Shown here: piece after piece, positions 16,574 through 55,227 of the stretch
Layout of the letters: each line of letters begins with the position of its first letter
Numbering within the stretch: position 1 is the first letter of the stretch
Source of the DNA: an uncultured Gammaproteobacteria bacterium
Lineage (GTDB): Bacteria; Patescibacteriota; Patescibacteriia; Magasanikbacterales; UBA922
Direction of reading: 5' to 3'
Assembly (NCBI GenBank): GCA_964435035.1
Contig: CAYSXR010000001.1
Location: forward strand, 144,192-208,191
Length of the DNA: 64,000 nt
Notes under the pieces: generated by a model
Told to the model about the DNA's origin: nothing
Database searches by the model: none
What the model saw: only the letters and a program-made list of their open reading frames with translations
Position numbers and translations under genes: made by a program

Positions 16574-16574
16574 G

Positions 16575-16647
16575 TGACCCCGGTGGGGATCGAACCCACG
16601 ACCATTGGCTTAAAAGGCCACTGCTCTACCAGCTGAGCTACAGGGTC
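16575..16647 (-). tRNA. tRNA-Lys (anticodon UUU)
   Basis: Manual fold of the reverse complement gives a 7-bp acceptor stem, a GGTTCGATCC T-arm, and anticodon loop CU-UUU-AA. 73 nt, no encoded CCA. Confidence 0.85.
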
Positions 16648-36417: not shown

Positions 36418-36492
36418 AGTGAAATAGTTCTAAAATAAATAACTCGCACGTAGGAGTTATTCTGGTGGACAGGTTTTTAGTAAAACAATAAG

Positions 36493-36566
36493 CGGGCTGG
36501 ACGGGACTCGAACCCGCAACTTCTGCCGTGACAGGGCAGTGCTCTAACCAGTTGAACTACCAGCCC
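36493..36566 (-). tRNA. tRNA-Asp (anticodon GUC)
   Basis: The reverse complement folds with acceptor gggctgg/ccagccc, a GGTTCGAGTCC T-arm and anticodon loop CU-GUC-AC. 74 nt. Confidence 0.85.
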
Positions 36567-38647: not shown

Positions 38648-38776
38648 ACTTCCTCCTTAAAAAAGTTGTATTGGCAGTGCCACGAGGGCGCGCTGTGCTT
38701 AGTAATGTTGCTGCCACGTAAAGTCGCTACGCTCCTACGTGGCACTCAAAGGCGCTCTGAGAATCGCGCCTTTTCG

Positions 38777-39173
38777 TGGAGATGCCGGGAGTCGAACCCG
38801 GGTCTAGACGGGTTACCCCGATACTCTACATGTGTATCGATGTTTGGTGTTTCGCATACGAATATGAAACATCGAAAAATATCGCATGCTATCGCATGAA
38901 TGGTTTCAACTAACTTCCATACGAACAAAGTTAGTCTACGCTCGAACTAGGGTTGGCACCGTGGATCCACCATCGAGTATCGTGGGTACGATGGTCGTAG
39001 TGATTTAGGCTACAACAGAAGCAAAGCTAGGCATACTGAAAGCTTTCGCTACAGTGTTTTTAGCTCGCTCGAACAAGTTTGCACTTGTGGAATTGCCTAT
39101 TTGTTACAGAGACAGGCACTCTGACATGCATATACAAGATAACAGAATCCATCTATCGAAGCCTGTCATCCCC
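38777..39173 (-). ncRNA. ssrA: tmRNA (SsrA), about 397 nt
   Basis: 5' GGGGAUGACAGGCUUCGAUAG... pairs with 3' ...GGUUCGACUCCCGGCAUCUCCA(CG), giving a 7-bp acceptor stem and a T-arm GGUUCGACUCC. It sits directly upstream of smpB. The tag reading frame is not securely assigned. Confidence 0.8.
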
Positions 39174-43393: not shown

Positions 43394-46240
43394 GTGTGTA
43401 TGGTAGCGATATCCCCCGAACAATCAGTACCGCAAGAATCACGAAAGAAAAAAACACCTGATACGGTAAAAATAGAGAAATATAGTGAGGTGTGGGAGCA
43501 TGCAAAAAATCTGGAGGGTAAAATAAAAAAACTCAAAGAACATGCAATCGATGCGGATGAAATCGGAGAAATAGAAGGTATTCTCAAAGATGCAAAAGGA
43601 TATTTTTCTAGATTTGGAGAGAAAAAAGATAAAGGCAGAAGTGTTGCTCAGCTTGAAGAGAGGCGTAAGGCTGCAGTAGAAAAACTTACTGACCTTAATC
43701 GGCGCATGGTGTCGATGCTTGAAAAATTAGGACAACCAATTCCTAATACTCTTTTGTCGTACAAAGACAGTGGATTTGTTGATATTGTAAAAGAATCTAA
43801 TAAAGAAGGGTTGTCTGAAGAAAAAAAAGAAGAAGTGTCTGAAGTTGTGGGTGCTCATATAATTCAGCCCCCTGAAAATTATTCTAAAGAGTCATTGGGT
43901 GATTCAGAAATTGGTGGTGTGAATAGTATCGAGGCGCCAGAGAAGAAGGAAGAAGTGTTGGTTTCTGCCGAAGAGTCGCCTGTAAATGTACGAGAGGAAT
44001 CATCCTCACCTGAAACACCAATAGAAGATGTTATCAAGATTTCTTCAGGAGGAAAAACATATGAATTCGGCTGGCACGAACAGGTGGTTTACACTACTGC
44101 AAAGGGTAAGCAGCTTGAGTGTATTGTGCTTGGAAAATCAAATGATGAGAATAAGCCGGGGCTTATTTTGAAAGATCTTGAAAAAGGAAAAGTATTTGCT
44201 CTTGGTGCAGATGCGGTTGCAAAACGGGTACATGTTTCTGATGGTGAAATAGTTTCTCCACGTGTAGAAAATAATAAGGCCGATTCTGGTCAATCTGCTG
44301 AAGGTGAAGATATTGATAGAGAAGAAAAAGCTGCTCTTGAAAAAATGAAAAAAGACCAGAGGGAAGTAGAAGAGAAAAAAGCTCAAGAATTAAGTGAATT
44401 ATTAGCACAAGCTGGAAAGTCTGCCGAAGATGACACTTCATTTGTACACACAAGCACAGATGAGAGGGGAAGTTTCGATCAGAAGATGGTTGATAAACTT
44501 GTAGCTGATGGATCGATTGAAAAAATTAACACGTTATTGAAAAATAAATCCGAGGTGTGGGTACAGGAAGATGGTAAATGGTATCAGGGTGTAGTGCAAG
44601 ATATTACCGGAGCACAGGTGGGTGTTACTGTAGGAGAGGAGGGTCGAGAGAAAAAATATTTCTATGTGGATGCTGAAGAATTTTTGGGCATGCAGGATCG
44701 AGCGAAAAAATTGTTGAAATACAAAAAAGAATTAGAGCTTCCCTCGGTGGTGGTGGACACCGAATTCCTCGCTCGTCCAGATACGATCACCAAAGGTGAA
44801 ATTTTTACTCCTCCGACCGAGAGAAAGACCGTACCTGACGTGCCTCTAGTGAGTATTGATACTCCATTGCCGGTACGAGAACGAAAAACCTACCCAGAAG
44901 TTTCAGAAAAAAAAGCAATACAGATGATTCAATCAGTCGCTGAAGAATTTGAAAAAACATGGAAAGGAATGCGCATGATGACGACAGAAAAACAAAAGAC
45001 CGGATGGCTCCAGAGTAAGGAAGTTGAACGAGAGATGACGGTGACAGAAAAAAAGGAGCAATTAGAAGCGTGGCTTGATATGGTGGAGCAGGCATTTGAT
45101 TCACTCGACAAGCAAAAAGATGGGACACACATGGAAAAACCAGTACTCATGTGGCATCAGGCACAGGCATTAATTCGCGCATTAGAAAATGAACTTCGGT
45201 ATACAGAAGAAACGAATAAAAGTGAAGAGTGGGATCACGCACTTGAGGCTTTTAGTAGTATAATTAATGAAAGAAGCACACGTCTCAAGGAAAAAAAGAA
45301 AGGGTCATTGATTGCACCGTGGGCCATGAAAACGACACTTGCTGCCTTGGGTGCTTTTGCAATCGGAAATGCAACAAACAATCGAATAGAAGATGTGGCT
45401 GCAGTGAGTGAACGATATATGGAAGCAGGTGAAAAAAAATATGAATTACCCAGAGAAGAACATACGGGTGATGCACAGAGAAATATGCTAGATTTTGTAA
45501 TTAATATGAATCGGATGATAAACGAGCCCACACTTTCGATAACACCCGTTGCAATTGATGCTCGACTTACTCCACAGATCAAGGATAAAATATCAGGGAA
45601 AGTTCCGGGTTTGGCTGGTGCAGAAATAGCATCTGATGGAAAATCAGTTACATTGACTTTTGATAATAACCAAACAGTTGAAAGTCGTCCTGAAAAAATA
45701 CAAAAGTCGGGTCGCGATAGTTGGAAACTGAAGACAGCTGAGAAAAAGGGTCCGGAGTATGGCGAACAAATGTTGAGAGAATTAAGGAAAGTATTGGGTG
45801 AAGTAAAGCAAGAGTTTCCTGATATGTTTCGTGGACCAGAATCATCTTCCAAGCAAAAGAGAGTAGTAAGAACAGTAGTACAGGCCGAAAAGAAATTACG
45901 AGAAGCAGAGGTAGTAATACCGAGAAGTGGTGAGGCGAGAAGACAGTTGGAACAAGTAAAACAGGTGTTGGAACAAGTAAAACCAGGACTCGAATCTATT
46001 TCAAAAGAGATTGTAGATGAGATTAAGGCAGAGGATCTCGAATTGCCACAGGATGTATTTGTGCGTTTTAGTCGAGAGGTTACGTTTGATCCAAAGGCAG
46101 ATGCTCTATTTGAGGAATGGGGAAATGCACGAAATTCTCTCAAAGCAGCACAGGAAGCAGGAGATCAAGAGGGGGTAAAGAAAAGTAACGAGGAGTTGCG
46201 TAAGGTTATTGAAAAAATAACGAAAGAGTATAGTAAATAA
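43394..46240 (+). CDS. Large Lys/Glu-rich coiled-coil protein (948 aa)
   Basis: Long ORF with low-complexity charged coiled-coil segments; no enzymatic motifs. Confidence 0.6.
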   Translation: MCMVAISPEQSVPQESRKKKTPDTVKIEKYSEVWEHAKNLEGKIKKLKEHAIDADEIGEIEGILKDAKGYFSRFGEKKDKGRSVAQLEERRKAAVEKLTDLNRRMVSMLEKLGQPIPNTLLSYKDSGFVDIVKESNKEGLSEEKKEEVSEVVGAHIIQPPENYSKESLGDSEIGGVNSIEAPEKKEEVLVSAEESPVNVREESSSPETPIEDVIKISSGGKTYEFGWHEQVVYTTAKGKQLECIVLGKSNDENKPGLILKDLEKGKVFALGADAVAKRVHVSDGEIVSPRVENNKADSGQSAEGEDIDREEKAALEKMKKDQREVEEKKAQELSELLAQAGKSAEDDTSFVHTSTDERGSFDQKMVDKLVADGSIEKINTLLKNKSEVWVQEDGKWYQGVVQDITGAQVGVTVGEEGREKKYFYVDAEEFLGMQDRAKKLLKYKKELELPSVVVDTEFLARPDTITKGEIFTPPTERKTVPDVPLVSIDTPLPVRERKTYPEVSEKKAIQMIQSVAEEFEKTWKGMRMMTTEKQKTGWLQSKEVEREMTVTEKKEQLEAWLDMVEQAFDSLDKQKDGTHMEKPVLMWHQAQALIRALENELRYTEETNKSEEWDHALEAFSSIINERSTRLKEKKKGSLIAPWAMKTTLAALGAFAIGNATNNRIEDVAAVSERYMEAGEKKYELPREEHTGDAQRNMLDFVINMNRMINEPTLSITPVAIDARLTPQIKDKISGKVPGLAGAEIASDGKSVTLTFDNNQTVESRPEKIQKSGRDSWKLKTAEKKGPEYGEQMLRELRKVLGEVKQEFPDMFRGPESSSKQKRVVRTVVQAEKKLREAEVVIPRSGEARRQLEQVKQVLEQVKPGLESISKEIVDEIKAEDLELPQDVFVRFSREVTFDPKADALFEEWGNARNSLKAAQEAGDQEGVKKSNEELRKVIEKITKEYSK

Positions 46241-46416: not shown

Positions 46417-46445
46417 TTGACAAAAAGGTATAAATATGCTATAGT
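46417..46445 (+). promoter_or_regulatory. Strong sigma70-type promoter TTGACA-17-TATAGT (cassette type P: cTTGACAaaaaggtataaatatgcTATAGTac)
   Basis: Perfect -35 and a 17-bp spacer. Near-identical cassettes occur at 49347-49375 and 63780-63808. It lies about 210 nt upstream of the first high-GC gene. Confidence 0.55.
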
Positions 46446-46655
46446 ACTGCGTTATTTCAAAAGCCCTACATAGGTCTTCGAAATAGCAATCCAGGGGCCC
46501 CATCAGAGAGGATATGTGTCCCTTCTGATGGAGTCCCTGGTCTAGGAGCTCCCACTGTGGCCCGTTCGGGCAATAGTGAGAGCCTTAGGCTCATTACAAT
46601 CGAAGAAGCTAGAACACGTGCCCCTATGAAAGGGGTGTAAACGAGGAGATCAGAA

Positions 46656-48104
46656 ATGATTGACCGCAACAAGAAGAGCAACAAGAAGAGCACGCCCGTG
46701 AAGGGCGGCGCTGCGGCGAACCCGCAGGCGATGGCAACCGTGGCGTCTCACAAGGACGACACGGCTCAGATCGATGTGGTGGTCGAGACCAATCCCGAGG
46801 CCGACAAGGTCGAGGGTGAGGTCAAGGCCGATGAAGAGGCGAAGGTCGAAGAGACCGTCGCCACCGCCCCGACCGAGAACGTCGAGAAGAGCGAGGAGCC
46901 GGCCGTTGTGGTCGACCCCGAGCCCGAGCTCGAGCAGAAGCGGAACTTCCGTAAGGAAGACCTCCGCCTCCGGTACAACGACAACCCGCAGGTGCTGCTC
47001 ACCTCCGCGGATCTCAGCGAAGAGGACAAGGTCCTCATCGGCGAGATCGCGAGCGAGCAGAACCAGGTCGTCCGCGACTATGCCGCGCTGGCACAGGAGC
47101 TGACCGACGAGAAGGACCAGCTCGAGCAGAAGCTCGACGCGACCAACTCCAAGCTGGGGAACGTCACCAACCTCATCGCGACCACGGTCAAGGAGACCGT
47201 GGGACAGGTGGACAAGGAGACGTCGGCCTTGATCGAAGGTCTGAAGATCGAGATCGAGGGCGTCATCGGCAAGGGTAACGGCGTGAAGAACGCCGTCACG
47301 AAGATCGGGGACGATGTCAACAAGGACATCGGCTCGCTCAAGGGTCAGGTCAACGCCAACGCCAAGTCGGTCAACGACAAGGTCGATGGGATGGCCGCGA
47401 TGCTCGGGAAGATCGACGAGAAGATCTCCGAGATCAAGTCCCCGCCGCCCCCGCAGCAGCCGCCGGCTCAGTCCAGCACCACCCCGTCCTCCGGATCCTC
47501 CGGGTGGCCGTGGGTCGTGGCCGTGGGCATCTTGCTCGCGGCCGTGATCGCGGTCTTCCTCCTGAACAAGGATGTGAAGATCGAGGTCCAGGTGCAGCAG
47601 CCGGCGGTGAACACCGTGAAGGGTGTGGTGCCGCCGGTGGTGGACAACGCTCTCGGGGTGACCTCGCAGCAGGTGACCCCGGGTGGACCGGGGAATCCGA
47701 TCGTGCCCACGGTGGTCGGTGCCACGTCCGAGGATCCCTGCAAGGGGAAGGTCGGTGGGGAGCTCGGGTCGTGTGTCCTTCAGCTGGAGAAGTTCCGGCC
47801 GAAGGGGTTCACTGATGCGCACTGGAACACGGTCGTCGAGACCTTCCAGAACGTCATCATGGTCCCCTTGAGCGTTCCGTTCAAGGACATCAAGCACCAC
47901 GACAAGGCCATCGAGCACAACATGAGGAAAGACGCGGCACTGCAGGCGTGCGTCGACGCATACGTCTTGAAGACGGATGATGTCGAGTCGAACGTCCGGT
48001 GTCAGCGGGCGGTCGATTGTCTGTTCACTTCGGTGGACGAGGCAGCACAGTGCTACATGACGCATACGCGCTCGATCACGGGCGTTTTGGTCACTGTCAA
48101 CTGA
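46656..48104 (+). CDS. Island gene 1: bitopic membrane protein (482 aa) with a cytoplasmic 11-mer-repeat/coiled-coil N-domain, one TM, and an extracytoplasmic Cys-containing C-domain
   Basis: Protein-like composition on the + strand versus R/L/D/G-rich junk on the antisense strand. TM WPWVVAVGILLAAVIAVFLL preceded by a PPPPQQPPAQ linker. Confidence 0.65.
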   Translation: MIDRNKKSNKKSTPVKGGAAANPQAMATVASHKDDTAQIDVVVETNPEADKVEGEVKADEEAKVEETVATAPTENVEKSEEPAVVVDPEPELEQKRNFRKEDLRLRYNDNPQVLLTSADLSEEDKVLIGEIASEQNQVVRDYAALAQELTDEKDQLEQKLDATNSKLGNVTNLIATTVKETVGQVDKETSALIEGLKIEIEGVIGKGNGVKNAVTKIGDDVNKDIGSLKGQVNANAKSVNDKVDGMAAMLGKIDEKISEIKSPPPPQQPPAQSSTTPSSGSSGWPWVVAVGILLAAVIAVFLLNKDVKIEVQVQQPAVNTVKGVVPPVVDNALGVTSQQVTPGGPGNPIVPTVVGATSEDPCKGKVGGELGSCVLQLEKFRPKGFTDAHWNTVVETFQNVIMVPLSVPFKDIKHHDKAIEHNMRKDAALQACVDAYVLKTDDVESNVRCQRAVDCLFTSVDEAAQCYMTHTRSITGVLVTVN

Positions 48105-48159
48105 ACCTCAACCCAACTAGTCCGACCTCCCTCGGGAGGTCGGACACAGGAGAACAGAC

Positions 48160-49095
48160 ATGAAGCAGCTCGTCGCGAAGATCGTGGTTTATTACATCGT
48201 ACTTCTCTCGGCGTCGGCCTTCGGCTCGACGCCGAACCCCGGTGACCAGTTCGACCTGATCCAGGGAGGGATCCCGGCGAAGGTCGAGGTCACGCAGCAG
48301 GAGATCAAGGCGATGGACACGTCCATCGACCAGCTCCTGAAGCGCACCGGCGGTCTCCTCAAGAAGGACGCCGAGCTCAAGAAGGAGCTCGAGGACCTCA
48401 AGAAGGAGCTCGAGGACCTCAAGAGCAAGCTCGACAAGGTGGTGAAGCCGGGTGATCTCACGGTCATCCGAGTGGATCTGGGAAGGTTGTGGACGCAAGT
48501 CAACAACCATGGACAGCGCCTCACCGAGCTCGAGCAGGACGTCGAAGATCTGAAGAGGAGCGACAAGGCTCAGGACGATCGACTCGGTGATCACGACCAG
48601 AAAATCGAGGACATCAACAAGCGCCTCGATCGAGGTCTCGGAGTGAAGTTCGGCATCGGAGCCTATGGCGTCTACGGGACGCAAGGCTCGATCAACGGTG
48701 GAGCTTCGGCTCGGCTGAGGATCCCGCTGTCCGGTGGATGGCAAGCGATCGTCAATGGCGGAGTCGGCGGCAACCATCAGGGAGCTTCAGGATTCGCCGA
48801 TCTGTCGGTCGGCTACCAGTTCGCGAGCGGCATCTACCTGGGGGCAACCCTCGGTATCGACGCCAACTGCGACGGTATGTGCACCAGGCTCCTCACGGAG
48901 ATCTGGGGCGCAGGTCCCGACATCGGCTACCTGTCCGACGATGGACTCTTCATCCGGGCTCGTGTGCTCTTCGGGAGCGAGTGGATCAAGGGTCCGACGA
49001 TGCAGATCGAGTACCCGGATCGTACGGTCTTCAAGACCGACGAGTCCCGGGAGTTCGGCATCTCGGCTTTGATCCAGCTCGGTCACGAGTTCTAG
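48160..49095 (+). CDS. Island gene 2: secreted protein (311 aa) with signal peptide, a KKELEDLKKELEDLK coiled-coil, and a Gly-rich amphipathic beta C-terminal region ending in Phe (possible outer-membrane beta-barrel)
   Basis: Signal peptide LLSASAFG; alternating hydrophobic pattern GVKFGIGAYGVYG...ADLSVGYQFASGIYLGATLGIDA...; terminal ...LGHEF. Confidence 0.6.
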   Translation: MKQLVAKIVVYYIVLLSASAFGSTPNPGDQFDLIQGGIPAKVEVTQQEIKAMDTSIDQLLKRTGGLLKKDAELKKELEDLKKELEDLKSKLDKVVKPGDLTVIRVDLGRLWTQVNNHGQRLTELEQDVEDLKRSDKAQDDRLGDHDQKIEDINKRLDRGLGVKFGIGAYGVYGTQGSINGGASARLRIPLSGGWQAIVNGGVGGNHQGASGFADLSVGYQFASGIYLGATLGIDANCDGMCTRLLTEIWGAGPDIGYLSDDGLFIRARVLFGSEWIKGPTMQIEYPDRTVFKTDESREFGISALIQLGHEF

Positions 49096-49346
49096 ACTTC
49101 AAGATTCGGGGAGTGTCTCTACTCCCCGGACCCCTCACCTCGCCGACTTCAAGGCAGAAGGGATAAGACAATGAGACAAACACTCGAGTAAACGGCGTGG
49201 TCGCACAACGCGGCCCCCAATACTGGAGCATGGGCGATATTTCGAAAGAAATGTCGCCCCTCGCACAGCGTATATCAGTCTCTGGTATGCGATGACGAGA
49301 AAAGCATCTCACGTAAATCCCGACTAAATCGGGACACGTGACAAGC

Positions 49347-49375
49347 TTGACAAACGAGAGTATTTATGCTATACT
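49347..49375 (+). promoter_or_regulatory. Promoter cassette type P (cTTGACAaacgagagtatttatgcTATACTaag) within an AT-rich patch inside the island
   Basis: TTGACA-17-TATACT, highly similar to 46417 and 63780. Confidence 0.5.
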
Positions 49376-49500
49376 AAGCTGTTACAAAATAAAGAAGTGC
49401 CATGGGAAATCTCGATGTAGTCGGGGTATCTATGGTAGATCGTCATGCACTGCATGGTGGTCCATTGAACCTTACAATATATGCGAAATGTATAAAAAGC

Positions 49501-49544
49501 TTGAAAGGCTAGAAAGGCCGGAAAGGCTTGAAATGCTAGAGAAC
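49501..49544 (+). repeat. Tandem 9-mer direct repeats (ttgaaaggc tagaaaggc cggaaaggc ttgaaatgc tagagaac) in the leader of island gene 3
   Basis: Direct reading; about 5 units with core GAAAGGC. Confidence 0.5.
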
Positions 49545-49685
49545 GTATCTTGTGACGTGAAGAAAGAAATTTTCAATAAGAATTTTTTCTTAGCGTCACG
49601 AGGAGTTCTCAGGCGTGAAAACTTCTCGTGTGGTACACGAGGAAGCAACAACAAAACCCCGATTGAATCGGGGAGGAGAAGAGTC

Positions 49686-51452
49686 ATGAAGAAGTTCAAC
49701 AAGTTCCTGTTCGTCGTCATGTTCATCTCGTTCGTCGCGGCCATCACGGGCTGCGCCGATCACGGTGGCGAGACGGTCGTCGTCAAGGGTGACGATGGGG
49801 AGAGCGTCAAGCTCTGCCCCGAGGAGCATCAGTGCTCCTCGGCCGAGTTCTGCAACTCGCAGGGTCTCTGCGTCATCCCCGGTGCCAACGGCACCAACGG
49901 CGAGGACTTCGAGCGATGCTCGAATAGTCGTGGTGACTGTGTCGGTAACGAGCTCTGCAACTCGCAGGGCGTGTGTGTGCTCGAAGGTCCGCAAGGGCCG
50001 GCGGGGGAGTCCTGTACCGTGTCGACGAAGGTCGACGGGTGCTTCTTCCTCTACTGTGGCGCAAGCGTCACGGAGATCTGCGACGGCGAGGACGGTGTGT
50101 CCTGCACGGTCGCAGGGCAGCCGGACGGCAGCGCTCAGGTCGAGTGCTCGGACGGTTCGTTCGCGACCATCCTCCCCGGACAAGACGGCGAGGACGGTCT
50201 CAACGGCACGAGCTGCACGGCCTCGACGGTCAAAGGTTGCCTCGTGGTGACCTGCGGAACGCAGTCGACGGAGATCTGCCCGGAGGATCTTCCGGATCCC
50301 GAGCCGGTCGACGGCTGCCAGAAGGACTCGGACTGCACGGACGGCAGCGAGTGCACCAACGACATCTGCGATCTCAACACCGGCACCTGCCGGTACGTGT
50401 CGCAGGTGTGTGATGACGGCGTCGCCTGCACCAACGACTGGTGTGACACGAACGGCTACTGCCGTTCGACCGCGGACAATGATCAGTGCAGCGGCGGCGA
50501 CTTCTGCTTGCCGACCGGTTACTGGTTTTGGTCCTCGGCGGTGGGTTCTGAGGAACTCGCTGACGGAGGCTGTTACGAGTGCCGCTGGGACTCTGATTGT
50601 GCCGACGGCGACGCGTGTACGGTCGACACCTGCGACGCGGGTGTTTGCAAGAAGGAAACGCGCGAGTGCCCCACGGGTGCGACGTGCGTCGAGTACTCGA
50701 GCAACTACTACGACGACTCGGAGTGGAACTACGTGTGCCAGGACAATCCGTCGTGCAGCAACAACAGCCAGTGCGACGACGGCAAGTACTGGACGACGGA
50801 TGCGTGCGTGGCCGGGGAGTGTGTCTACACCCAGGTGTCGTGCAACGACAACAACGCATGCACCGTGGACACGGTGAACTCGAGTGGGCAGTGCACCTAC
50901 GCCCAGATCTCGTGCGACGATGGCAAATCCGCCACGGTCGACACGTGCTCTGCGAATACGGGGTGCGTACACACGCCGGTGAACACCGGCTGCGAGCACG
51001 ATCTCGATTGCGATGACGTCGACGGTACGACCACGGACCTGTGCGAGGACAACGGGAGCTGTACACATACTCCCAATGCCCAGTGCAAGTCCCTGACGGT
51101 CAAGGTCGGCTGGGCCATCCTGTGGTCGCGCGGTCCCGAGATCGGAACCACCAATGTCCCGATGGGCAACTGGCGTAGCTGCGAGGAAGACGAGGCGGAG
51201 AACTGCCGTACCATGTCGTGGTGCGGTGACGACATCGTGGAGTTCAATGTTCAGCAGATGCCGAACGTGGCAGGTGCCGACTGGCTCGTGAAGAACGAGA
51301 AAGGCGACAGCCCTTGCACGTCGAACGCAGATGCGACCTTGAACTACACGCCCGCTGATCTCTTCGTCGGGGCGACGCCGGTGCAGAAGGGCTGTTCGCT
51401 CTTCTGCGACCCGAACGGGTACACCAACTACACCTGCGATTCCGCGGAGTAG
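49686..51452 (+). CDS. Island gene 3: Cys-rich repeat lipoprotein (588 aa; start at ATG 49686 with a GGAGG RBS)
   Basis: Lipoprotein signal MKKFNKFLFVVMFISFVAAITGC. Many C-x-x-D-x-D-C / C-T-N-D-x-C-D repeats (e.g. CQKDSDCTDGSECTNDICDLNTGTCRY, CDDGVACTNDWCDTNGYC). The ORF track's upstream extension from 49338 is AT-rich non-coding leader. Confidence 0.7.
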   Translation: MKKFNKFLFVVMFISFVAAITGCADHGGETVVVKGDDGESVKLCPEEHQCSSAEFCNSQGLCVIPGANGTNGEDFERCSNSRGDCVGNELCNSQGVCVLEGPQGPAGESCTVSTKVDGCFFLYCGASVTEICDGEDGVSCTVAGQPDGSAQVECSDGSFATILPGQDGEDGLNGTSCTASTVKGCLVVTCGTQSTEICPEDLPDPEPVDGCQKDSDCTDGSECTNDICDLNTGTCRYVSQVCDDGVACTNDWCDTNGYCRSTADNDQCSGGDFCLPTGYWFWSSAVGSEELADGGCYECRWDSDCADGDACTVDTCDAGVCKKETRECPTGATCVEYSSNYYDDSEWNYVCQDNPSCSNNSQCDDGKYWTTDACVAGECVYTQVSCNDNNACTVDTVNSSGQCTYAQISCDDGKSATVDTCSANTGCVHTPVNTGCEHDLDCDDVDGTTTDLCEDNGSCTHTPNAQCKSLTVKVGWAILWSRGPEIGTTNVPMGNWRSCEEDEAENCRTMSWCGDDIVEFNVQQMPNVAGADWLVKNEKGDSPCTSNADATLNYTPADLFVGATPVQKGCSLFCDPNGYTNYTCDSAE

Positions 51453-51670
51453 TCGTACCCACAAACATTTCGTGTAAAAGCTTTGAGTAGCCTAGCTACC
51501 AGACTCAAAGTTCAATCAACGTAGCGGGAGGGGGCACAAGCGTTCATCTGAATTGCGCAAGCGATTCAGTGACGAGTGCCTCCCTCCCATTCCAACATAT
51601 CTTTATCAAAATTCAGAACTCAGATTACAGTGAGAGACTAGTGAGTATTGGTAGAGAGATGTGGGGATGG

Positions 51671-51728
51671 AAAATTCAAAACTTAAAACTTAAAACTCAA
51701 AATTTAGATTTAAGTTGTGAGTTATTAC
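51671..51728. repeat. Copy of the AT-rich AAAACTTAAAACTCAAA hairpin element inside the high-GC island
   Basis: aaaattcaaaacttaaaacttaaaactcaaaatttagatttaagttgtgagttattac. Same unit as 42071-42184. Confidence 0.5.
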
Positions 51729-51795
51729 AAACCCTTTCCATCATTATGATGGTTTCAATTCCCCTCAACCGCGACGACAGAAATGTCACGCGCGG

Positions 51796-51821
51796 AAAAA
51801 ACCCGCGCATGCGGGTTTTTT
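51796..51821. terminator. Rho-independent terminator (cccgcgcatgcggg stem flanked by an A-run and a T-run; potentially bidirectional)
   Basis: ggaaaaaacccgcgcatgcgggttttttaaa. Confidence 0.6.
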
Positions 51822-51913
51822 AAATTCCATTACCTCGGGTATATCGTATAATGATGGTATATCTATGGTAGAGGAATTCTACACGCCAGTTCACAAAAAC
51901 CAGGAGGGGACAC

Positions 51914-52651
51914 ATGTTGGGTATGACGTTTCGTTTGTTTGTTTTCTGTCTCACCGTGTTCACCGCCGCATGCATCGAGGATATGCGGCGGGAGGAAGCG
52001 TCCATGGTCCAGGTCGATACGTCGACTGGCATCATGGATATGGTGGAGGAAGTCAAAGACGTACCAGATTCACGGGTCCGTGATCGGTATGATATCGAAT
52101 TTCCTCCTACAGCCGACGAGTGTGTCGTCGATGAATTCATCGCAGAGGGAAGCCCTTGCGATGATGGCGATGCATGCACGATCGATGTCTGTATCCAGGG
52201 CATGTGTCGTAATCGAGCTATCGACTGCGACGACGGAAATCCCTGGACGGATGACGAGTGCATCGTCGACACTGGGGCGTGCTCCAGTGTACATCGGGTG
52301 ACTCATTTCACCGTTCGCGCGGAGCGTCCGGGAAAGGTGAAGCTTTGGTATGGGAATCACACCGAGCCAGAGACCTATCCCATGAACTCGAGCTTCGAGA
52401 TCCAGAAGATGGATCTCTGCGTCGAGAACCGTGTGCTCACGCTCGCGGTAGAGGACGAAGAGTTCCCGGGAACCTACTGGGGTTGTAACCCTGGCCTTCC
52501 TTCGAAGAGGGAACTCGCAGTCGAGATCGACGGGGTGGACACGCCCGGTTATTTCGCTGCGGATCTCGGATGGGAGGTGCCCAACTCTGCGTGTGGTGGG
52601 AAGGGAGAGGGTGACCTCTACTTCTTGCGGGCGCAACTCGCATGTGACTGA
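51914..52651 (+). CDS. Island gene 4: small Cys-rich lipoprotein (245 aa) sharing the CTxDxC motif and a C-terminal CNPGLPSK domain with genes 3 and 5
   Basis: Signal/lipobox FRLFVFCLTVFTAAC. The segment CDDGDACTIDVCIQGMCRNRAIDCDDGNPWTDDEC. C-terminal GCNPGLPSKRELAVEIDGV aligns with LDCNPGFPSKSTLTVMVNGV of gene 5. CAGGAGGGG RBS. Confidence 0.65.
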   Translation: MLGMTFRLFVFCLTVFTAACIEDMRREEASMVQVDTSTGIMDMVEEVKDVPDSRVRDRYDIEFPPTADECVVDEFIAEGSPCDDGDACTIDVCIQGMCRNRAIDCDDGNPWTDDECIVDTGACSSVHRVTHFTVRAERPGKVKLWYGNHTEPETYPMNSSFEIQKMDLCVENRVLTLAVEDEEFPGTYWGCNPGLPSKRELAVEIDGVDTPGYFAADLGWEVPNSACGGKGEGDLYFLRAQLACD

Positions 52652-52739
52652 TGACCGGGTGTCTCGCGAAGGATAGGATGGCGTATACGCTATGCTGTCC
52701 ACCTTCGCGAGCACCACTAATTCAACAAATAGAATTATA

Positions 52740-52768
52740 TTGACAAAATACTCTTTTCCTGATATGTT
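52740..52768 (+). promoter_or_regulatory. Candidate promoter TTGACA-17-TATGTT for island gene 5
   Basis: attgacaaaatactcttttcctgatatgttg. Confidence 0.4.
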
Positions 52769-52878
52769 GATACGATTGTATCTACGCATATCGGATATCT
52801 AGAGAGGTATCTGGTATGCGCCACTGGAGAATCATTCTCAAGTGTGTATGTTCATTATAATCACATAAGTTTTTTGTT

Positions 52879-52946
52879 CAGCTAGAGGATGGGTGCAGAT
52901 AGAGGTATATGTAACATATCTTGTATCGATAGCCACCCTCTAGCTG
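52879..52946 (+). promoter_or_regulatory. Nested palindromes in the gene-5 leader (outer 13-bp arms cagctagaggatg/caccctctagctg enclosing atatgtaacatat)
   Basis: Direct reading. A second nested set (gtctcgcgaagg ... gcgtatacgc ... ccttcgcgagc) lies at 52660-52712, just after the gene-4 stop. Confidence 0.45.
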
Positions 52947-52998
52947 AGACACAGTGTCACTGCTGGAGTTCAACGGCCTCACAACGGAGGAAGGCCAA

Positions 52999-55041
52999 AT
53001 GCGTCTGAAGAACAACAACAACCGGATGTTCATCATCACGGTTGCCCTCGCCATGGGGTTCATGGCGGCGTGCACGGAACACGGCGGCGACGAGCCGATC
53101 GTGGTCGTGATGAAGGCGGACCTCGACCTCGACGAGGTCCCCAACAACGTCGACAACTGCCCGGGGGACAACAACCCCGATCAGTTGGACACCGACGGCG
53201 ACGGCATGGGCGATGCGTGCGACAACGACGTCGACGGCGACGGGGTCTTGAACCCCGCCGACAACTGCCCCGACAACTTCAACCCCGACCAGGCGAACCT
53301 CGACAAGGTCCTGGCCGACAGCGGCAACGTCACCGTGGTCGCGGATCTCTTCGGAGACGTCTGCGACAACGACGACGACGGCGACGTGGTCTGCGACCCC
53401 TGGCTCGGCGTGGACGGGTGGGAAGAATTCCATCCCGGTCAGGGCGAGACGTGTCAGGGCGAGGACAACTGTCCCGACGTCGCCAACGCCGACCAGGCGA
53501 ACCTCGACAAGGACTTCGAGGGCGACGTCTGCGACAACGACGTCGACGGCGACGGCGACCTCAACGGCGCAGACAACTGCCCGCTCGTGACCAACGCCGA
53601 CCAGGCAAACCTGGATCGGGACGACTGGGGCGACGCCTGCGACACCGACGACGACAACGACAGCTTCTGCGACGAAGCTGCCCCCGTCTCGATGCCGCGA
53701 AATGCGCCCGCGATGCCCCTCTGCGAGGGCGAGGACAACTGCCCCCGCTTCAAGAACGCGGGACAGGAAGACATGGACGAGGACGGCATGGGCGACGTCT
53801 GCGACGACGACTGCGACGGGGACCTCTACCCCGAAGCGTCGCCCTGGGATTTCCCCAACCTGTCGTGCTTCGTGTATTGCAATCCGGAAGGTCCGGGAAC
53901 CGAGTGCGACGACGCGAACACGTGCACCACGGACACCTGCAACGGGCAGGGCGTTTGCGAGTACGTGTTCACGCAGTCCGAGACGTGCGAATGCGTCTTG
54001 GACTCCGACTGCGAGCCGACCGACGCCTGCGTCACCGAGATGGCGTGCGTGGAAAACACGTGCGTCGAGACCGGATGGAAGGTCCTGACCGACGGGGACA
54101 ACTGCACCATCGACACCTGTGATCCCTCGACCGGCGTGGTCACCCACGTCGAGAAGGACTGTGGTGGGGACCTCTGCGGAGGAGGCCTCTCGTGTAACCG
54201 CATGACCGGAGAGTGCAGCACACCCGTGCCGCAAATTCCGATCAACGACAGCAACGCCTGCACCACCGACGCGTGCGATCCCGAGACCGGCGTGGTCACC
54301 CACGTCGCGATCGTCTGCGACGATGGGAACGCATGCAACGGCACCGAGACGTGCAACCCGGCTTCCGGGTGCGTCGCGGGTACGCCGCTCACGTGCGATG
54401 ACGGAAGCGTCTGCACGATCGACAGTTGTTCGGCAAACACCTGCCAACACGTGGCGGTGACGACGAACGACAACAACATGTGCACCACCGACACCTGCGA
54501 TCCCGAGATGGGGGTGCAGCACACGGCGGTGGTGTGCAACGACGTGAACTCCAACACCACCGACACCTGCGATCCGGCGACGGGTTGCGTGCACACGCCG
54601 ACGGGGAACTGCACGGTCAACGCGGATTGCAACGACAGCAATCCCCTGACCTACGACACCTGCGTCGCGCTCGTCTGCCAACATGTGGAAGGTGTCCGCG
54701 TGCAGGTCTCGTCGACCGACACGTCGGAGACCTGGCAGGTCAATTTCTACTACAACGGTACGACGATCTCCGGCAACCTGCCCTTCGACGGGACCTTGCC
54801 GAAGACGCTCGCATGCAGCTGGGGCGCCGACATCGCCGTCAACCGTCCGAGCACGAACTTGTTCTTGGACTGCAACCCGGGGTTCCCCTCGAAGTCCACC
54901 CTGACCGTCATGGTCAATGGTGTCACGAAGGCGAACGACTTCCAGGTTCGTTCGCAGGCATGCGACGGCGCTCCGCCGGGCAACCTGTGGCTCTCCGACG
55001 AGAGCGGTGACAACGACCTGGGATGCCCCGCGGCACCCTAG
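52999..55041 (+). CDS. Island gene 5: lipoprotein (681 aa) with at least 5 thrombospondin type-3 Ca-binding repeats followed by CTTDxCDPxTG Cys-rich repeats and the shared C-terminal domain
   Basis: Signal/lipobox MFIITVALAMGFMAAC. DNCPGDNNPDQLDTDGDGMGDACDNDVDGDG-type TSP3 repeats (five DNCP motifs). Repeated CTTDTCDPETGVVTHV/CDDG units. RBS GGAGGAAGG upstream of ATG 52999. Confidence 0.75.
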   Translation: MRLKNNNNRMFIITVALAMGFMAACTEHGGDEPIVVVMKADLDLDEVPNNVDNCPGDNNPDQLDTDGDGMGDACDNDVDGDGVLNPADNCPDNFNPDQANLDKVLADSGNVTVVADLFGDVCDNDDDGDVVCDPWLGVDGWEEFHPGQGETCQGEDNCPDVANADQANLDKDFEGDVCDNDVDGDGDLNGADNCPLVTNADQANLDRDDWGDACDTDDDNDSFCDEAAPVSMPRNAPAMPLCEGEDNCPRFKNAGQEDMDEDGMGDVCDDDCDGDLYPEASPWDFPNLSCFVYCNPEGPGTECDDANTCTTDTCNGQGVCEYVFTQSETCECVLDSDCEPTDACVTEMACVENTCVETGWKVLTDGDNCTIDTCDPSTGVVTHVEKDCGGDLCGGGLSCNRMTGECSTPVPQIPINDSNACTTDACDPETGVVTHVAIVCDDGNACNGTETCNPASGCVAGTPLTCDDGSVCTIDSCSANTCQHVAVTTNDNNMCTTDTCDPEMGVQHTAVVCNDVNSNTTDTCDPATGCVHTPTGNCTVNADCNDSNPLTYDTCVALVCQHVEGVRVQVSSTDTSETWQVNFYYNGTTISGNLPFDGTLPKTLACSWGADIAVNRPSTNLFLDCNPGFPSKSTLTVMVNGVTKANDFQVRSQACDGAPPGNLWLSDESGDNDLGCPAAP

Positions 55042-55227
55042 AACTTCTCCTGCGACGACTGCAGGAGCATCTCGAAGTGAACGTGTGATTCGCTTCTGTA
55101 GGTGAATGTTCGAAGACAATCACACAAACCGGGGGAAGTGCGCTCGCTACTACAGCGACCGCTTCCTCCCCTCTACTCTGAATTCAAGTACGATCTTGAG
55201 AATAGAGTAGAAGGGCACGCTAGAATA

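Follow-up and report, generated by a model that had tools for sequence, protein, structure and literature searches.

Introduction

The OmpM/SlpA proteins of diderm Terrabacteria are envelope tethers that consist of an SLH domain, which binds peptidoglycan/SCWP, a coiled-coil stalk on the periplasmic side and a C-terminal barrel (PMC10160955). Compact barrels of eight strands are found in OmpW/AlkL (PDB 2f1t, 6qwr) as well as in NspA/Opa, OmpX/Ail, the N-terminal domains of OmpA/OprF and Thermus TtoA (1p4t, 3qra, 1qj9, 1bxw, 4rlc, 3dzm), the last of which places this fold within a Terrabacteria lineage. Barrels of the NspA/OmpX/OmpA type are anchors or adhesins rather than pores; they have a salt-bridged polar lumen, aromatic girdles and long, variable exposed loops. 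Autotransporters and TAAs join a variable N-terminal part, which includes a coiled-coil stalk in TAAs, to a conserved C-terminal barrel with a terminal Phe or Trp; the barrel has 12 strands (four per chain in TAAs) and a helix in its pore. In the Gracilibacteria (BD1-5), Sieber et al. (2019) described a hypervariable extracellular and probably adhesive gene, which breaks assemblies and is written in GAC-enriched, non-genomic codons (PMC6851277).

A large part of bacterial diversity belongs to the CPR/Patescibacteria, which live attached to other cells and whose host attachment and exchange are poorly known. They have been described as monoderm or as having given up the outer membrane (PMC8871954, PMC10160955, PMC6851277); they belong to the Terrabacteria, for which a diderm ancestor has been argued (PMC10160955), and the envelopes of most of them have never been imaged (PMC8871954). 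We found no precedent in the literature for OMP-type barrels in CPR. A single-chain barrel of this type in a supposedly one-membrane lineage would mean either that an outer lipid layer has been overlooked in some CPR or that the fold was put to a new use, for example insertion without BAM into the membrane of another cell. Either outcome bears on the evolution of the Terrabacteria envelope and on the mechanics of episymbiosis.

Here we describe a candidate for such a protein, gene 2 of a hypervariable module in a stretch of 64,000 nucleotides (the window). The DNA had been assigned to CPR from its letters alone, and this assignment agrees with its PheT, which is 50% identical to that of a Magasanikbacteria MAG, and with a syntenic NCBI contig of Ca. 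Magasanikbacteria. Gene 2 resembles OmpM/SlpA in the order of signal peptide, coiled-coil stalk and C-terminal barrel and, in the role proposed below, in bridging two envelope layers; it differs in having no SLH domain (Pfam), eight strands instead of a much larger barrel, and no sequence similarity. It shares 11% identity with OmpW/AlkL and has no Pfam OmpW match, adds an N-terminal coiled-coil stalk and belongs to an organism presumed to be without an outer membrane. The salt-bridged polar lumen and the aromatic girdles of the NspA/OmpX/OmpA type recur in the predicted barrel of gene 2 with no sequence relationship, but here the loops are short and most conserved whereas the N-terminal stalk is variable. 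Compared with autotransporters, the layout and the terminal aromatic residue are alike, yet gene 2 has eight strands per chain and no YadA-anchor or autotransporter match in Pfam, and since its predicted lumen is filled the barrel would not be able to export a passenger. The Gracilibacteria gene, in turn, encodes a protein of PTD tandem repeats that is anchored by an N-terminal TM segment; a barrel, a multi-gene module and wholesale codon inversion are all absent there.

Results

A predicted exported protein with a variable stalk

Prediction and comparison define the gene, its conservation, its domain layout, its barrel fold, its membrane-type surface and its operon context. The features of gene 2 are as follows.

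48122..48143, plus strand: intercistronic hairpin between gene 1 and gene 2, CCGACCTCC-CTC-GGGAGGTCGG, read from sequence
48148-48152, plus strand: AGGAG ribosome-binding site of gene 2, 3' of the intercistronic hairpin
48160..49095, plus strand: gene 2 ORF, 311 aa
48160..48219, plus strand: signal peptide (read from sequence), residues 1-20, with predicted cleavage between ASA and F, upstream of 48220; AxA site kept in homologues
48220..48639, plus strand: helical, heptad-phased stalk, residues 21-160, from heptad phase and predicted helices
48640..49095, plus strand: predicted C-terminal eight-stranded OMP-fold beta-barrel, residues 161-311, and stop codon
Residues 163-173, 178-189, 194-205, 208-220, 225-238, 244-258, 263-284 and 289-310: predicted barrel strands
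48868-48882, plus strand: Cys237/Cys241 pair in loop 3 of the barrel

GC3 is 0.81 in the frame of gene 2, against about 0.30 in the backbone, and homologues are conserved in the same frame, which indicates that the plus strand is coding. Minus-strand coding was rejected by the GC3 phase and the conservation: the minus-strand ORFs, including a minus-strand gene call at locus L001 (Logan), are shadow ORFs of GC-rich DNA. The ATG lies 8 nt downstream of the AGGAG Shine-Dalgarno sequence, beyond the hairpin.

The N-terminus, MKQLVAKIVVYYIVLLSASA followed by F, has two Lys, a hydrophobic core of 13-14 residues and an AxA site, and an equivalent site (AQA, AHA or ASA) is present in all full-length homologues. 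The product is predicted to be exported by Sec with a cleavable signal peptide. Heptad phase is maintained across residues ~35-104 and ~98-153, and both the cleavable signal peptide and the coiled coil of the sequence-only reading appear to be right. Residues 74-88, KKELEDLKKELEDLK (48379-48423), are encoded within a 21-nt tandem repeat at 48357-48434, which is allele-specific, as the 91% identical L002 protein differs there. The stalk (~130 aa) is hypervariable, with 27-30% identity between allele types, and gave only coiled-coil noise against Pfam and NCBIfam.

The gene 2 family has about seven members among billions of proteins, which all occupy one locus in CPR genomes that are Magasanikbacteria-like. 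This position is shared by at least seven related genomes, with alleles 34-91% identical, and each locus has one copy; the 64-kb window holds no paralogue. An exhaustive HMM search of 1.84 G representatives added two true members, and P0007-P0010 were discarded as low-complexity false positives. Outside the CPR clade, no relative of gene 2 was found among 5.8 G clustered proteins and 1.84 G representatives, in 185,579 species genomes (GTDB) or in IMG/VR; gene 1 likewise has no relative outside the clade, and JGI metagenome contigs also gave no match. Gene 2 is a real, lineage-restricted gene whose product has a signal peptide, a variable helical stalk and a conserved C-terminal domain.

Backbone proteins of the window and of L001 are 87-99.5% identical, against 57% for a 948-aa neighbour, 46% for gene 1 and 40% for gene 2. 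The barrel has a dN/dS of ~0.15-0.19 and is, by this estimate, under purifying selection. Stalk and barrel recombine independently of each other, and the type of the gene 1 ectodomain follows that of the stalk, not that of the barrel; this co-variation could be simple linkage of adjacent segments.

The C-terminal domain is predicted to be an outer-membrane-type barrel

AlphaFold was run once on an alignment of five sequences and gave a whole-chain pLDDT of 71 and a pTM of 0.45; the C-terminal part of the model has eight strands, its barrel blocks reach pLDDT 77-92 and the five models score alike. A Foldseek search of the PDB with this model returned 42 matches at E<1e-3, of which the natural ones are nearly all outer-membrane barrels and the remainder designed transmembrane barrels, while the structural matches in BFVD are phage-encoded OMP barrels. 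On OmpW, 141 residues superpose at 2.7 A. Identity to the structural matches is 7-18%. Neither Pfam (E<=0.1), whose MBB clan includes OmpA_membrane, OMP_b-brl, OmpW, Ail_Lom, Opacity and PagL, nor NCBIfam (E<=0.01) returned a barrel family, and a profile search of the PDB with a cut-off of E<=10 yielded noise only.

Residues 161-311 contain 19% Gly and show a strict two-residue alternation, which is kept in 7/7 members: in the per-column analysis the mean Kyte-Doolittle value is +1.55 on the outward face and -0.92 on the inward face, the faces being assigned from hairpin register and residue types, not from coordinates. Each strand has 5-7 successive outward hydrophobic positions (I/L/V/F/A), and this face carries aromatic residues at either end, Y172, W249, W275 and F299 at one and F164, W194, Y219, Y257, W263 and F311 at the other; the two belts lie one membrane thickness apart. 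Inward there are ~14 invariant Gly together with R185, R187, R266, R268, D214, D234, D254 and E274. The pattern holds among members merely 34-60% identical, and the beta7-beta8 hairpin is long and conserved. These data favour, as a prediction, a closed eight-stranded antiparallel barrel of the OmpW/NspA/OmpX/OmpA type, its strands joined to their nearest neighbours. The sequence-only reading had seen a barrel in the last ~150 aa and had named a soluble non-barrel fold as its refutation; structure prediction gives the barrel. As the lumen is Gly-rich with Arg/Asp/Glu pairs, the domain looks like an anchor, not an open pore.

Cys237 and Cys241 are both present in five alleles and both absent in two. 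This pattern suggests that the loop end carries a disulfide and argues against this end facing the cytoplasm. The loop end is also the most conserved part of the barrel (invariant T174, H206, S210, N236, E247, E274, W275 and R297). In classical exposed OMPs the loops vary, so the conserved loop end of gene 2 needs a special explanation, for example that it takes part in insertion or binds a conserved partner or ligand.

Gene 2 lies in a hypervariable, probable surface module

The remaining features of the module are listed below.

46417..46445, plus strand: sigma-70-type promoter of the gene 1-gene 2 operon, TTGACA-17-TATAGT with TG extension, 11/12 matches
46446..46655, plus strand: gene 1 5' leader, ~210 nt (alignment A7)
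46656..48104, plus strand: gene 1, 482-aa bitopic membrane protein, GC3 0.88, topology read from sequence
49096..49312, plus strand: conserved structured element, ~215 nt, directly 3' of the gene 2 stop codon (alignments A5, A6)
49347..49375, plus strand: gene 3 promoter, TTGACA-17-TATACT, followed by a conserved leader of ~310 nt
49686..51452, plus strand: gene 3, lipoprotein MKKFNKFLFVVMFISFVAAITGC with Cys-rich Dicty_CTDC-type repeats
51914..52651, plus strand: gene 4, small lipoprotein with lipobox ...TAAC and one Cys-rich repeat, its C-terminal domain common to gene 5
52740-52768, plus strand: gene 5 promoter
52999..55041, plus strand: gene 5, lipoprotein with thrombospondin type-3 (Ca-binding) and Dicty_CTDC repeats

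The operon promoter is unchanged across six loci, and native promoter-like sites of the same type occur upstream of the tmRNA and tRNA-Asp genes (39360 and 36800). Gene 1 is always directly upstream of gene 2. It has no signal peptide; an acidic coiled-coil N-terminal part (residues ~89-260), which is probably cytoplasmic, is followed by one TM helix (~285-303), a linker rich in Pro and Gly, and a helical ectodomain in which six Cys are conserved. With a pLDDT of 44 its AlphaFold model is too low for a fold search, but the helices, the TM segment and the helical ectodomain are readable.

The order gene 1, gene 2, lipoprotein is kept in every locus whose contig is long enough to show it. The body of gene 3 differs between loci and is collagen-like in L086, while the start of gene 5 at 52999 is supported by a 100% identical protein of 680 aa (P0015). 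The island is positioned between Wzz-like and GT4/Wzy envelope genes, and these flanks, the TSP3/Cys-repeat lipoprotein neighbours and the hypervariability point to a surface or contact role of the module. Our best reading of these sequences is a hypervariable surface module in which the gene 1-gene 2 pair would be the constant core and to which adhesin-like, variable Cys-rich lipoproteins also belong.

Discussion

We tentatively favour, while giving it somewhat less than even credence, the view that in gene 2 a variable stalk carries a barrel that anchors it in a membrane, that the protein works in a cell-contact complex and that its barrel probably sits in a bilayer other than the cytoplasmic membrane of its own cell. 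Gene 2 would be co-transcribed with gene 1, a bitopic protein of the cytoplasmic membrane with a Cys-rich ectodomain. The exported barrel would not enter this membrane but would insert, without BAM, into a different bilayer, most likely the outer membrane of the partner cell that carries the episymbiont. The stalk would connect back to the CPR surface, plausibly via the gene 1 ectodomain, and the complex of the two proteins would be an intercellular tether or contact device. The target membrane, the independence of BAM, the interaction with gene 1 and the tether role are what we infer here. The suggestion in the sequence-only reading that the products are secreted or host-interaction factors fits the context of the module.

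In its more specific form this proposal makes the barrel a self-inserting, BAM-independent anchor in the outer membrane of a bacterial host, with stalk and gene 1 ectodomain joining the two cells, and in this form we find it possible but rather unlikely. The small eight-stranded barrels OmpA, OmpX and PagP reportedly fold into bilayers in vitro without BAM, as work associated with Kleinschmidt and Fleming is said to have found, but spontaneous insertion from outside into an LPS-covered outer membrane is kinetically unfavourable. Such an anchor would be the bacterial cell-to-cell counterpart of Tir and of Neisseria PorB, where a pathogen inserts its own receptor or porin into a host membrane. 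The gene 2 protein is small, expressible and testable in vitro.

One would argue that the barrel does not enter a membrane at all: its exterior could be buried in a coiled-coil homo-oligomer or covered by gene 1 or by the lipid moieties of the lipoproteins, or the barrel could be an OmpW/AlkL-like conduit or shuttle in the wall zone for lipids or other hydrophobic cargo that comes from the host. The two aromatic belts one membrane thickness apart and the 5-7 outward hydrophobic positions per strand, however, are hallmarks of bilayer insertion, and a lumen that is lined by Gly, Arg and Asp is probably closed. We regard these options together as unlikely, though by no means negligible.

It is quite improbable, in our estimate, that gene 2 is a classical OMP of the CPR cell itself, whose clade would then possess an outer membrane or some OM-like layer of lipid; BAM or some other route would insert the barrel there, with the coiled coil reaching inward as the OmpM/SlpA stalk does. 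The signal peptide, the eight-stranded barrel, the aromatic girdles and the C-terminal aromatic residue are formal OMP features, a coiled coil N-terminal to the barrel is the OmpM/SlpA layout, and both the diderm ancestor argued for the Terrabacteria (PMC10160955) and the unimaged envelopes of most CPR (PMC8871954) leave room for it. Against this stand the reports of CPR as monoderm and the ~38 ORFs scanned within the 64-kb window, none of which has an Omp85, POTRA, Lol, Lpt, TolC, Skp or SurA domain. A real outer membrane needs many OMPs, whereas this family numbers ~7 worldwide, with a single copy at each locus; it also has no SLH domain and matches the beta-signal only partly.

The BAM beta-signal consensus is polar-x-G-x-x-aromatic/hydrophobic-x-aromatic/hydrophobic, with a terminal aromatic residue. 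The chain of gene 2 does end in ...LGHEF, as had been pointed out from the sequence alone, but the terminal Phe that was taken there for a BAM signature is not invariant: five of the seven members end in F and one in L, and in one the barrel closes with W, after which comes an acidic tail of 30 aa. The last strand has its invariant Gly at -4, not at -6, and H, Y or R at -3, a position that is aromatic in just 2/7. The same reading held that the lipoproteins, too, would need an outer membrane, which is mistaken, for monoderm bacteria anchor lipoproteins in the cytoplasmic membrane via Lgt/Lsp.

Insertion from outside into the cytoplasmic membrane of the CPR cell, which would anchor the coiled coil at its surface, would make a second membrane unnecessary; a protein exported by Sec meets no bilayer nearer than this one, and small barrels can self-insert in vitro. 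But the reducing cytoplasm would then surround the loop end, where the Cys pair co-varies and a polar ring is conserved, and an N-terminal helix or a lipobox, as in the neighbouring genes, would suffice for anchoring. To our knowledge no beta-barrels occur in cytoplasmic membranes, where they would be expected to be harmful. We consider this placement distinctly unlikely.

We give equally little credence to a prediction artefact, by which the domain would be an open sheet, or an amyloid-like or beta-solenoid surface domain. The shallow alignment of five sequences, the whole-chain pLDDT of 71, the pTM of 0.45 and the missing sequence homology to barrel families would allow for it. Yet the barrel itself reaches pLDDT 77-92, with five models that score alike, and places 141 residues on OmpW at 2.7 A, and strand boundaries, turns and in/out periodicity are kept in the most divergent members.

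The composition of the island could suggest that gene 2 is a passenger, brought by horizontal transfer from a high-GC diderm donor and without adapted function. GC jumps sharply from 40% to 60-65%, GC3 of the island coding sequences is 0.65-0.88 against ~0.30 in the backbone, a codon usage typical of high-GC organisms, and relatives of gene 5 with TSP3/Cys repeats occur in many diderm phyla, including Myxococcota-type MtsC. However, the inversion is strictly confined to coding sequences; the spacers have a host-like GC of 41-46% and are highly conserved, the GC2 of 0.37-0.38 in genes 1-2 resembles that of the backbone, and the alleles of the locus, present in at least seven genomes, all retain GC3 of 0.73-0.88. 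Neither gene 1 nor gene 2 has relatives beyond the clade. Transfer is largely refuted already and seems very improbable to us. The framing of the module as a foreign island is weak, given the native-type promoters, the conserved spacers and the purifying selection on the barrel; the donor-machinery framing of the sequence-only reading, which presupposes a recent arrival from a diderm, is not supported either, as gene 2 has no relative beyond the CPR clade and sits at the same locus in at least seven genomes behind native-type promoters. Were the module expressed within a diderm host of high GC, in the manner of Agrobacterium T-DNA, this would jointly explain codon usage, lipoboxes and beta-signal, but the native-type promoters argue against it and we deem it extremely improbable.

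Other explanations were considered and rejected. A chimeric assembly does not agree with the same junctions in independent assemblies and with AT-rich spacers inside the island, GC-biased gene conversion, as a source of the high GC, would not spare the spacers, and a DGR target would be at odds with the missing adenine-specific pattern and with no RT nearby. Gene 5 did not point to a donor, as its 3822 repeat-driven matches spread over many phyla with no closest lineage.

The module poses a separate puzzle, with hypervariable coding sequences of mirror-image codon usage inside ultra-conserved AT-rich spacers with structured RNAs, and it may serve as a strain-level marker of host specificity. 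If gene 2 is an anchor in the membrane of the host, the codon inversion limited to the CDS and the structured RNAs would be a dedicated control layer by which the contact module is expressed in one particular state only. Leaders and 3' element matched no Rfam family beyond sub-threshold miRNA-type noise, and no motif shared among the five spacers of the island was found. The leader of gene 1 is nearly invariant between loci whose gene 1 proteins share just 45-78% identity; stable hairpins are predicted in it, its variation being too low for covariation. In the element at 49096..49312, 11 of the 62 predicted pairs show compensatory changes, and its conservation exceeds that of the flanking coding sequences.

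Architecture of the gene 2 product

The GC-rich 46.6-55.1 kb stretch carries long ORFs on both strands, and its plus strand is identified as coding by third-position GC (GC3 is 0.81 in gene 2 and 0.88 in gene 1) and by homologue conservation. Its genes are:

46656-48104, (+), gene 1, bitopic membrane protein
48160-49095, (+), gene 2, barrel protein of 311 aa
49686-51452, (+), gene 3, lipoprotein
51914-52651, (+), gene 4, lipoprotein
52999-55041, (+), gene 5, lipoprotein

The 55 nt between genes 1 and 2 hold a perfect hairpin and then an AGGAG ribosome-binding site. Every element that the sequence-only reading had listed was found in gene 2: a signal peptide, a coiled coil, a Gly-rich alternating C-terminal part and the LGHEF end. 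Read from the sequence, the signal peptide is MKQLVAKIVVYYIVLLSASA (next residue F), with an AxA site that also occurs in all full-length homologues. Heptad phase extends over about residues 35-104 and 98-153, divided by the invariant Pro97, and this region is helical in the AlphaFold model; residues 74-88 (KKELEDLKKELEDLK) originate from a 21-nt tandem repeat and are allele-specific. Residues 161-311 contain 19% Gly in strict alternation and run to the LGHEF terminus.

The AlphaFold2 model, built on a shallow alignment of five sequences, has eight strands (residues 163-173, 178-189, 194-205, 208-220, 225-238, 244-258, 263-284 and 289-310; block pLDDT 77-92). Foldseek returned 42 PDB matches with E<1e-3; the natural proteins are nearly all outer-membrane barrels and the others designed transmembrane barrels, and the BFVD matches are phage-encoded outer-membrane protein (OMP) barrels. 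Since the fold alone separates membrane from soluble barrels poorly, we compared both strand faces in all seven members. One face bears I/L/V/F/A at 5-7 alternate positions per strand and aromatics at both ends, forming belts at the turn end (F164, W194, Y219, Y257, W263, F311) and the loop end (Y172, W249, W275, F299). The opposite face has about 14 invariant Gly together with Ser, Thr, Asn and Arg/Asp/Glu pairs. Judged from the residues, the two faces are patterned as in narrow, closed transmembrane barrels (OmpA and OmpX, for example), and the C-terminal domain of gene 2 is very probably a membrane-type barrel of the OMP fold.

A new family on a known fold

Gene 2 has no sequence match in Pfam, NCBIfam or the PDB. 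A word-indexed search of 5.8 G clusters gave four relatives, the barrel profile, run as an HMM exhaustively against 1.84 G representatives, brought in only two more members, and none occurs in GTDB species genomes, IMG/VR or JGI contigs. Every member is built from a signal peptide, a helical stalk and a barrel; one member, P0006, continues for a 30-aa acidic tail beyond the barrel, which is therefore not C-terminal in every member. Loop 3 contains both Cys237 and Cys241 in five alleles and neither of them in two. This joint presence or absence suggests a disulfide, which would place the loop end in an oxidising, extracytoplasmic location. Exposed OMPs usually have variable loops; here, in contrast, the loop end carries an invariant ring (T174, G176, H206, G208, S210, N236, G239, T242, T246, E247, S273, E274, W275, P279, T280, R288, R297, F299).

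The barrel is akin to OmpW, NspA, OmpX and OmpA by fold, but to none of them by sequence. OmpM/SlpA tethers also combine a coiled coil with a barrel, but gene 2 has no SLH domain and only 8 strands. Autotransporters show the same pattern of variation, but no passenger can be exported through the 8-stranded, filled-lumen barrel of gene 2. The agreement with the BAM beta-signal is no more than partial. On these comparisons we class gene 2 as a sequence family and an architecture that are both new, built on a known fold and found in an unexpected lineage.

A hypervariable surface module

Gene 1 lies upstream of gene 2 on every contig that reaches that far. Its product lacks a signal peptide; an acidic, coiled-coil N-terminal part is followed by one transmembrane helix and by an ectodomain in which six Cys are conserved. 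The AlphaFold model of this protein (pLDDT 44) is uninformative. Gene 2 is followed by a spacer of about 550 nt and a lipoprotein gene that starts MKKFNxFLF...ITGCADHGG, with a body that varies by locus: Cys-rich repeats in the window, collagen-like or DUF7151 sequence on contig L086. Two more Cys-repeat/TSP3 lipoproteins lie downstream in the window; the Cys-rich repeats encoded by genes 3, 4 and 5 are paralogous, and the products of genes 4 and 5 have a C-terminal domain in common. At the same position, L086 2070-3401 and L085 2780-3007 join the same lipoprotein signal peptide to collagen-like (GxY) or DUF7151 bodies. Adhesin bodies are exchanged downstream of gene 2 in a cassette-like manner. 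A Wzz-like gene flanks the island on one side and GT4/Wzy genes on the other.

Protein identity between alleles

Backbone proteins, window and L001: 87-99.5%
Upstream 948-aa protein, window and L001: 57%
Gene 1, window and L001: 46%
Gene 2, window and L001: 40%
Gene 2, window and L083: stalk 27%, barrel 86%
Gene 2, L001 and L086: stalk 75%, barrel 47%

The differing histories of stalk and barrel indicate that the two recombine independently at their junction. Across L083, L084, L086 and L001 the gene 2 alleles are domain mosaics joined near residue 160 (window position about 48640). dN/dS is 0.15-0.19 in the barrel and about 0.4 in the stalk (closest pair). The type of the gene 1 ectodomain goes with the stalk type of gene 2 and not with its barrel type, which would fit a contact between ectodomain and stalk and is equally well explained by simple linkage. 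We regard gene 2 as a predicted exported protein in which a variable coiled-coil stalk is modelled in front of a conserved 8-stranded barrel of membrane type. It is predicted to be co-transcribed with gene 1, in a surface module that is under diversifying pressure.

The 948-aa protein upstream of the island (43394-46240) has normal codon usage and is hypervariable, so the variable region starts ahead of the GC jump. Contig L002 encodes its final 212 aa with 100% identity, and its counterpart in an NCBI MAG has 1214 aa. Public assemblies repeatedly break in or just past the module (L087 inside gene 1; also L001, L002, L083-L086 and L088), and most of these contigs are 2-5 kb long. Such breaks fit strain-level hypervariability and may explain the apparent rarity of the gene 2 family.

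Organism and location of the barrel

Backbone genes in the window encode PheS/PheT, pyruvate kinase, PPDK, IF3, SmpB, tmRNA and giant M23/LVIVD/DUF11 surface proteins. The CPR assignment is sound, because the best relative of PheT belongs to a Candidatus Magasanikbacteria MAG (50% identity; next come other Patescibacteria at 37-40%) and a syntenic NCBI contig with the same locus carries the label Ca. Magasanikbacteria. From the earlier interpretation the OMP-type barrel stands, borne out by the model and the face pattern; a simple recent transfer of the island does not. Nor do the lipoproteins call for an outer membrane, as had been argued, since monoderms anchor lipoproteins in the cytoplasmic membrane. 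Published accounts present CPR bacteria as monoderms or as cells that lost their outer membrane (PMC8871954, PMC10160955, PMC6851277). A barrel in such a genome is surprising and open to experimental test.

As to location and function, we infer the following. Because its lumen is closed and polar, the barrel would serve as an anchor. It would need a bilayer. It could insert, without BAM, into the outer membrane of a partner cell, while the stalk and gene 1 would tie the complex to the CPR cell; we favour this full tether model over the other readings, though tentatively and at less than an even chance. A barrel outside any membrane, shielded by an oligomer or lipid or acting as a lipid carrier, is rather unlikely. 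Residence in an OM-like layer of the CPR cell itself would suit the OMP fold, is at odds with the monoderm envelope described for CPR, and seems improbable. The cell's own cytoplasmic membrane would supply a bilayer, but is disfavoured by the Cys pair that co-varies at the loop end, and is equally improbable. We give the same low credence to an artefact of the model, given its shallow alignment on one side and the face pattern on the other. That gene 2, with its conserved barrel, is an inert passenger of horizontal transfer is scarcely credible.

Codon inversion and conserved RNAs

The codon inversion, hypervariability and conserved RNAs of the module pose a separate puzzle. GC is about 40% in the window and 52-65% at 46.6-55.1 kb, and the codon usage of the five island CDSs (46656-55041) inverts that of the backbone: AAA (Lys) has a fraction of 0.80 in the backbone and 0.06 in the island, ATC (Ile) 0.19 and 0.97, ATA (Ile) 0.20 and 0.00, and GC3 is about 0.30 against 0.65-0.88. 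The bias sets in at the first codon and ends strictly at the stop. GC is 41-46% in the long spacers (island spacers: 48105-48159, 49096-49685, 51453-51913, 52652-52998), and genes 1-2 resemble the backbone in their GC2. Conservation is far higher in the island spacers than in the CDSs, and the island promoters (TTGACA-17-TATAGT or TATACT) correspond to the native promoter-like sequences ahead of the genes for tmRNA and tRNA-Asp. All these points speak against a simple recent transfer of the island. Recent transfer with amelioration fails as well, because all seven loci keep the codon pattern with proteins merely 34-91% identical; the bias seems to be maintained. A Gracilibacteria genome offers a partial precedent, a surface-protein gene that is hypervariable and atypical in its codon use (PMC6851277).

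The roughly 215 nt directly past the gene 2 stop codon (49096-49312) form a conserved element, which exceeds its flanking genes in conservation (8 loci). It is predicted by RNAalifold to form four or five hairpins with 62 pairs, of which 11 show compensatory changes, and Rfam has no matching family; we regard it as a candidate for a new structured RNA, which would be an sRNA or a 3' UTR element. At 46417-46655 a promoter and a gene 1 leader of about 210 nt are almost invariant in 6 loci, where the gene 1 proteins are 45-78% identical; long stable hairpins are predicted in the leader, which has no Rfam match. The gene 3 leader (49376-49685, about 310 nt) is likewise conserved; inside it, at 49495-49540, about 5 copies of the 9-nt tandem repeat AAAGGCTAG correspond to a gap in other loci.

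The GC-rich CDSs contain long antisense shadow ORFs (46650-48065, 48097-48777, 49596-51464 and 52957-55119, all (-)). The public gene call at L001 8467-9987 (-) is on the wrong strand for gene 1; a position-1 GC of 0.80 marks it as the complement of the true frame. Database annotations of the gene 1-gene 2 locus are thus likely wrong. The RNA genes of the window are tmRNA (38774-39173 (-), tag ANLFERAKNTVAKAFSMPSFASVVA), tRNA-Asp(GTC) (36492-36566 (-)) and tRNA-Lys(TTT) (16574-16647 (-)); the last, its sole Lys tRNA, reads AAA best, and 94% of the island Lys codons are AAG.
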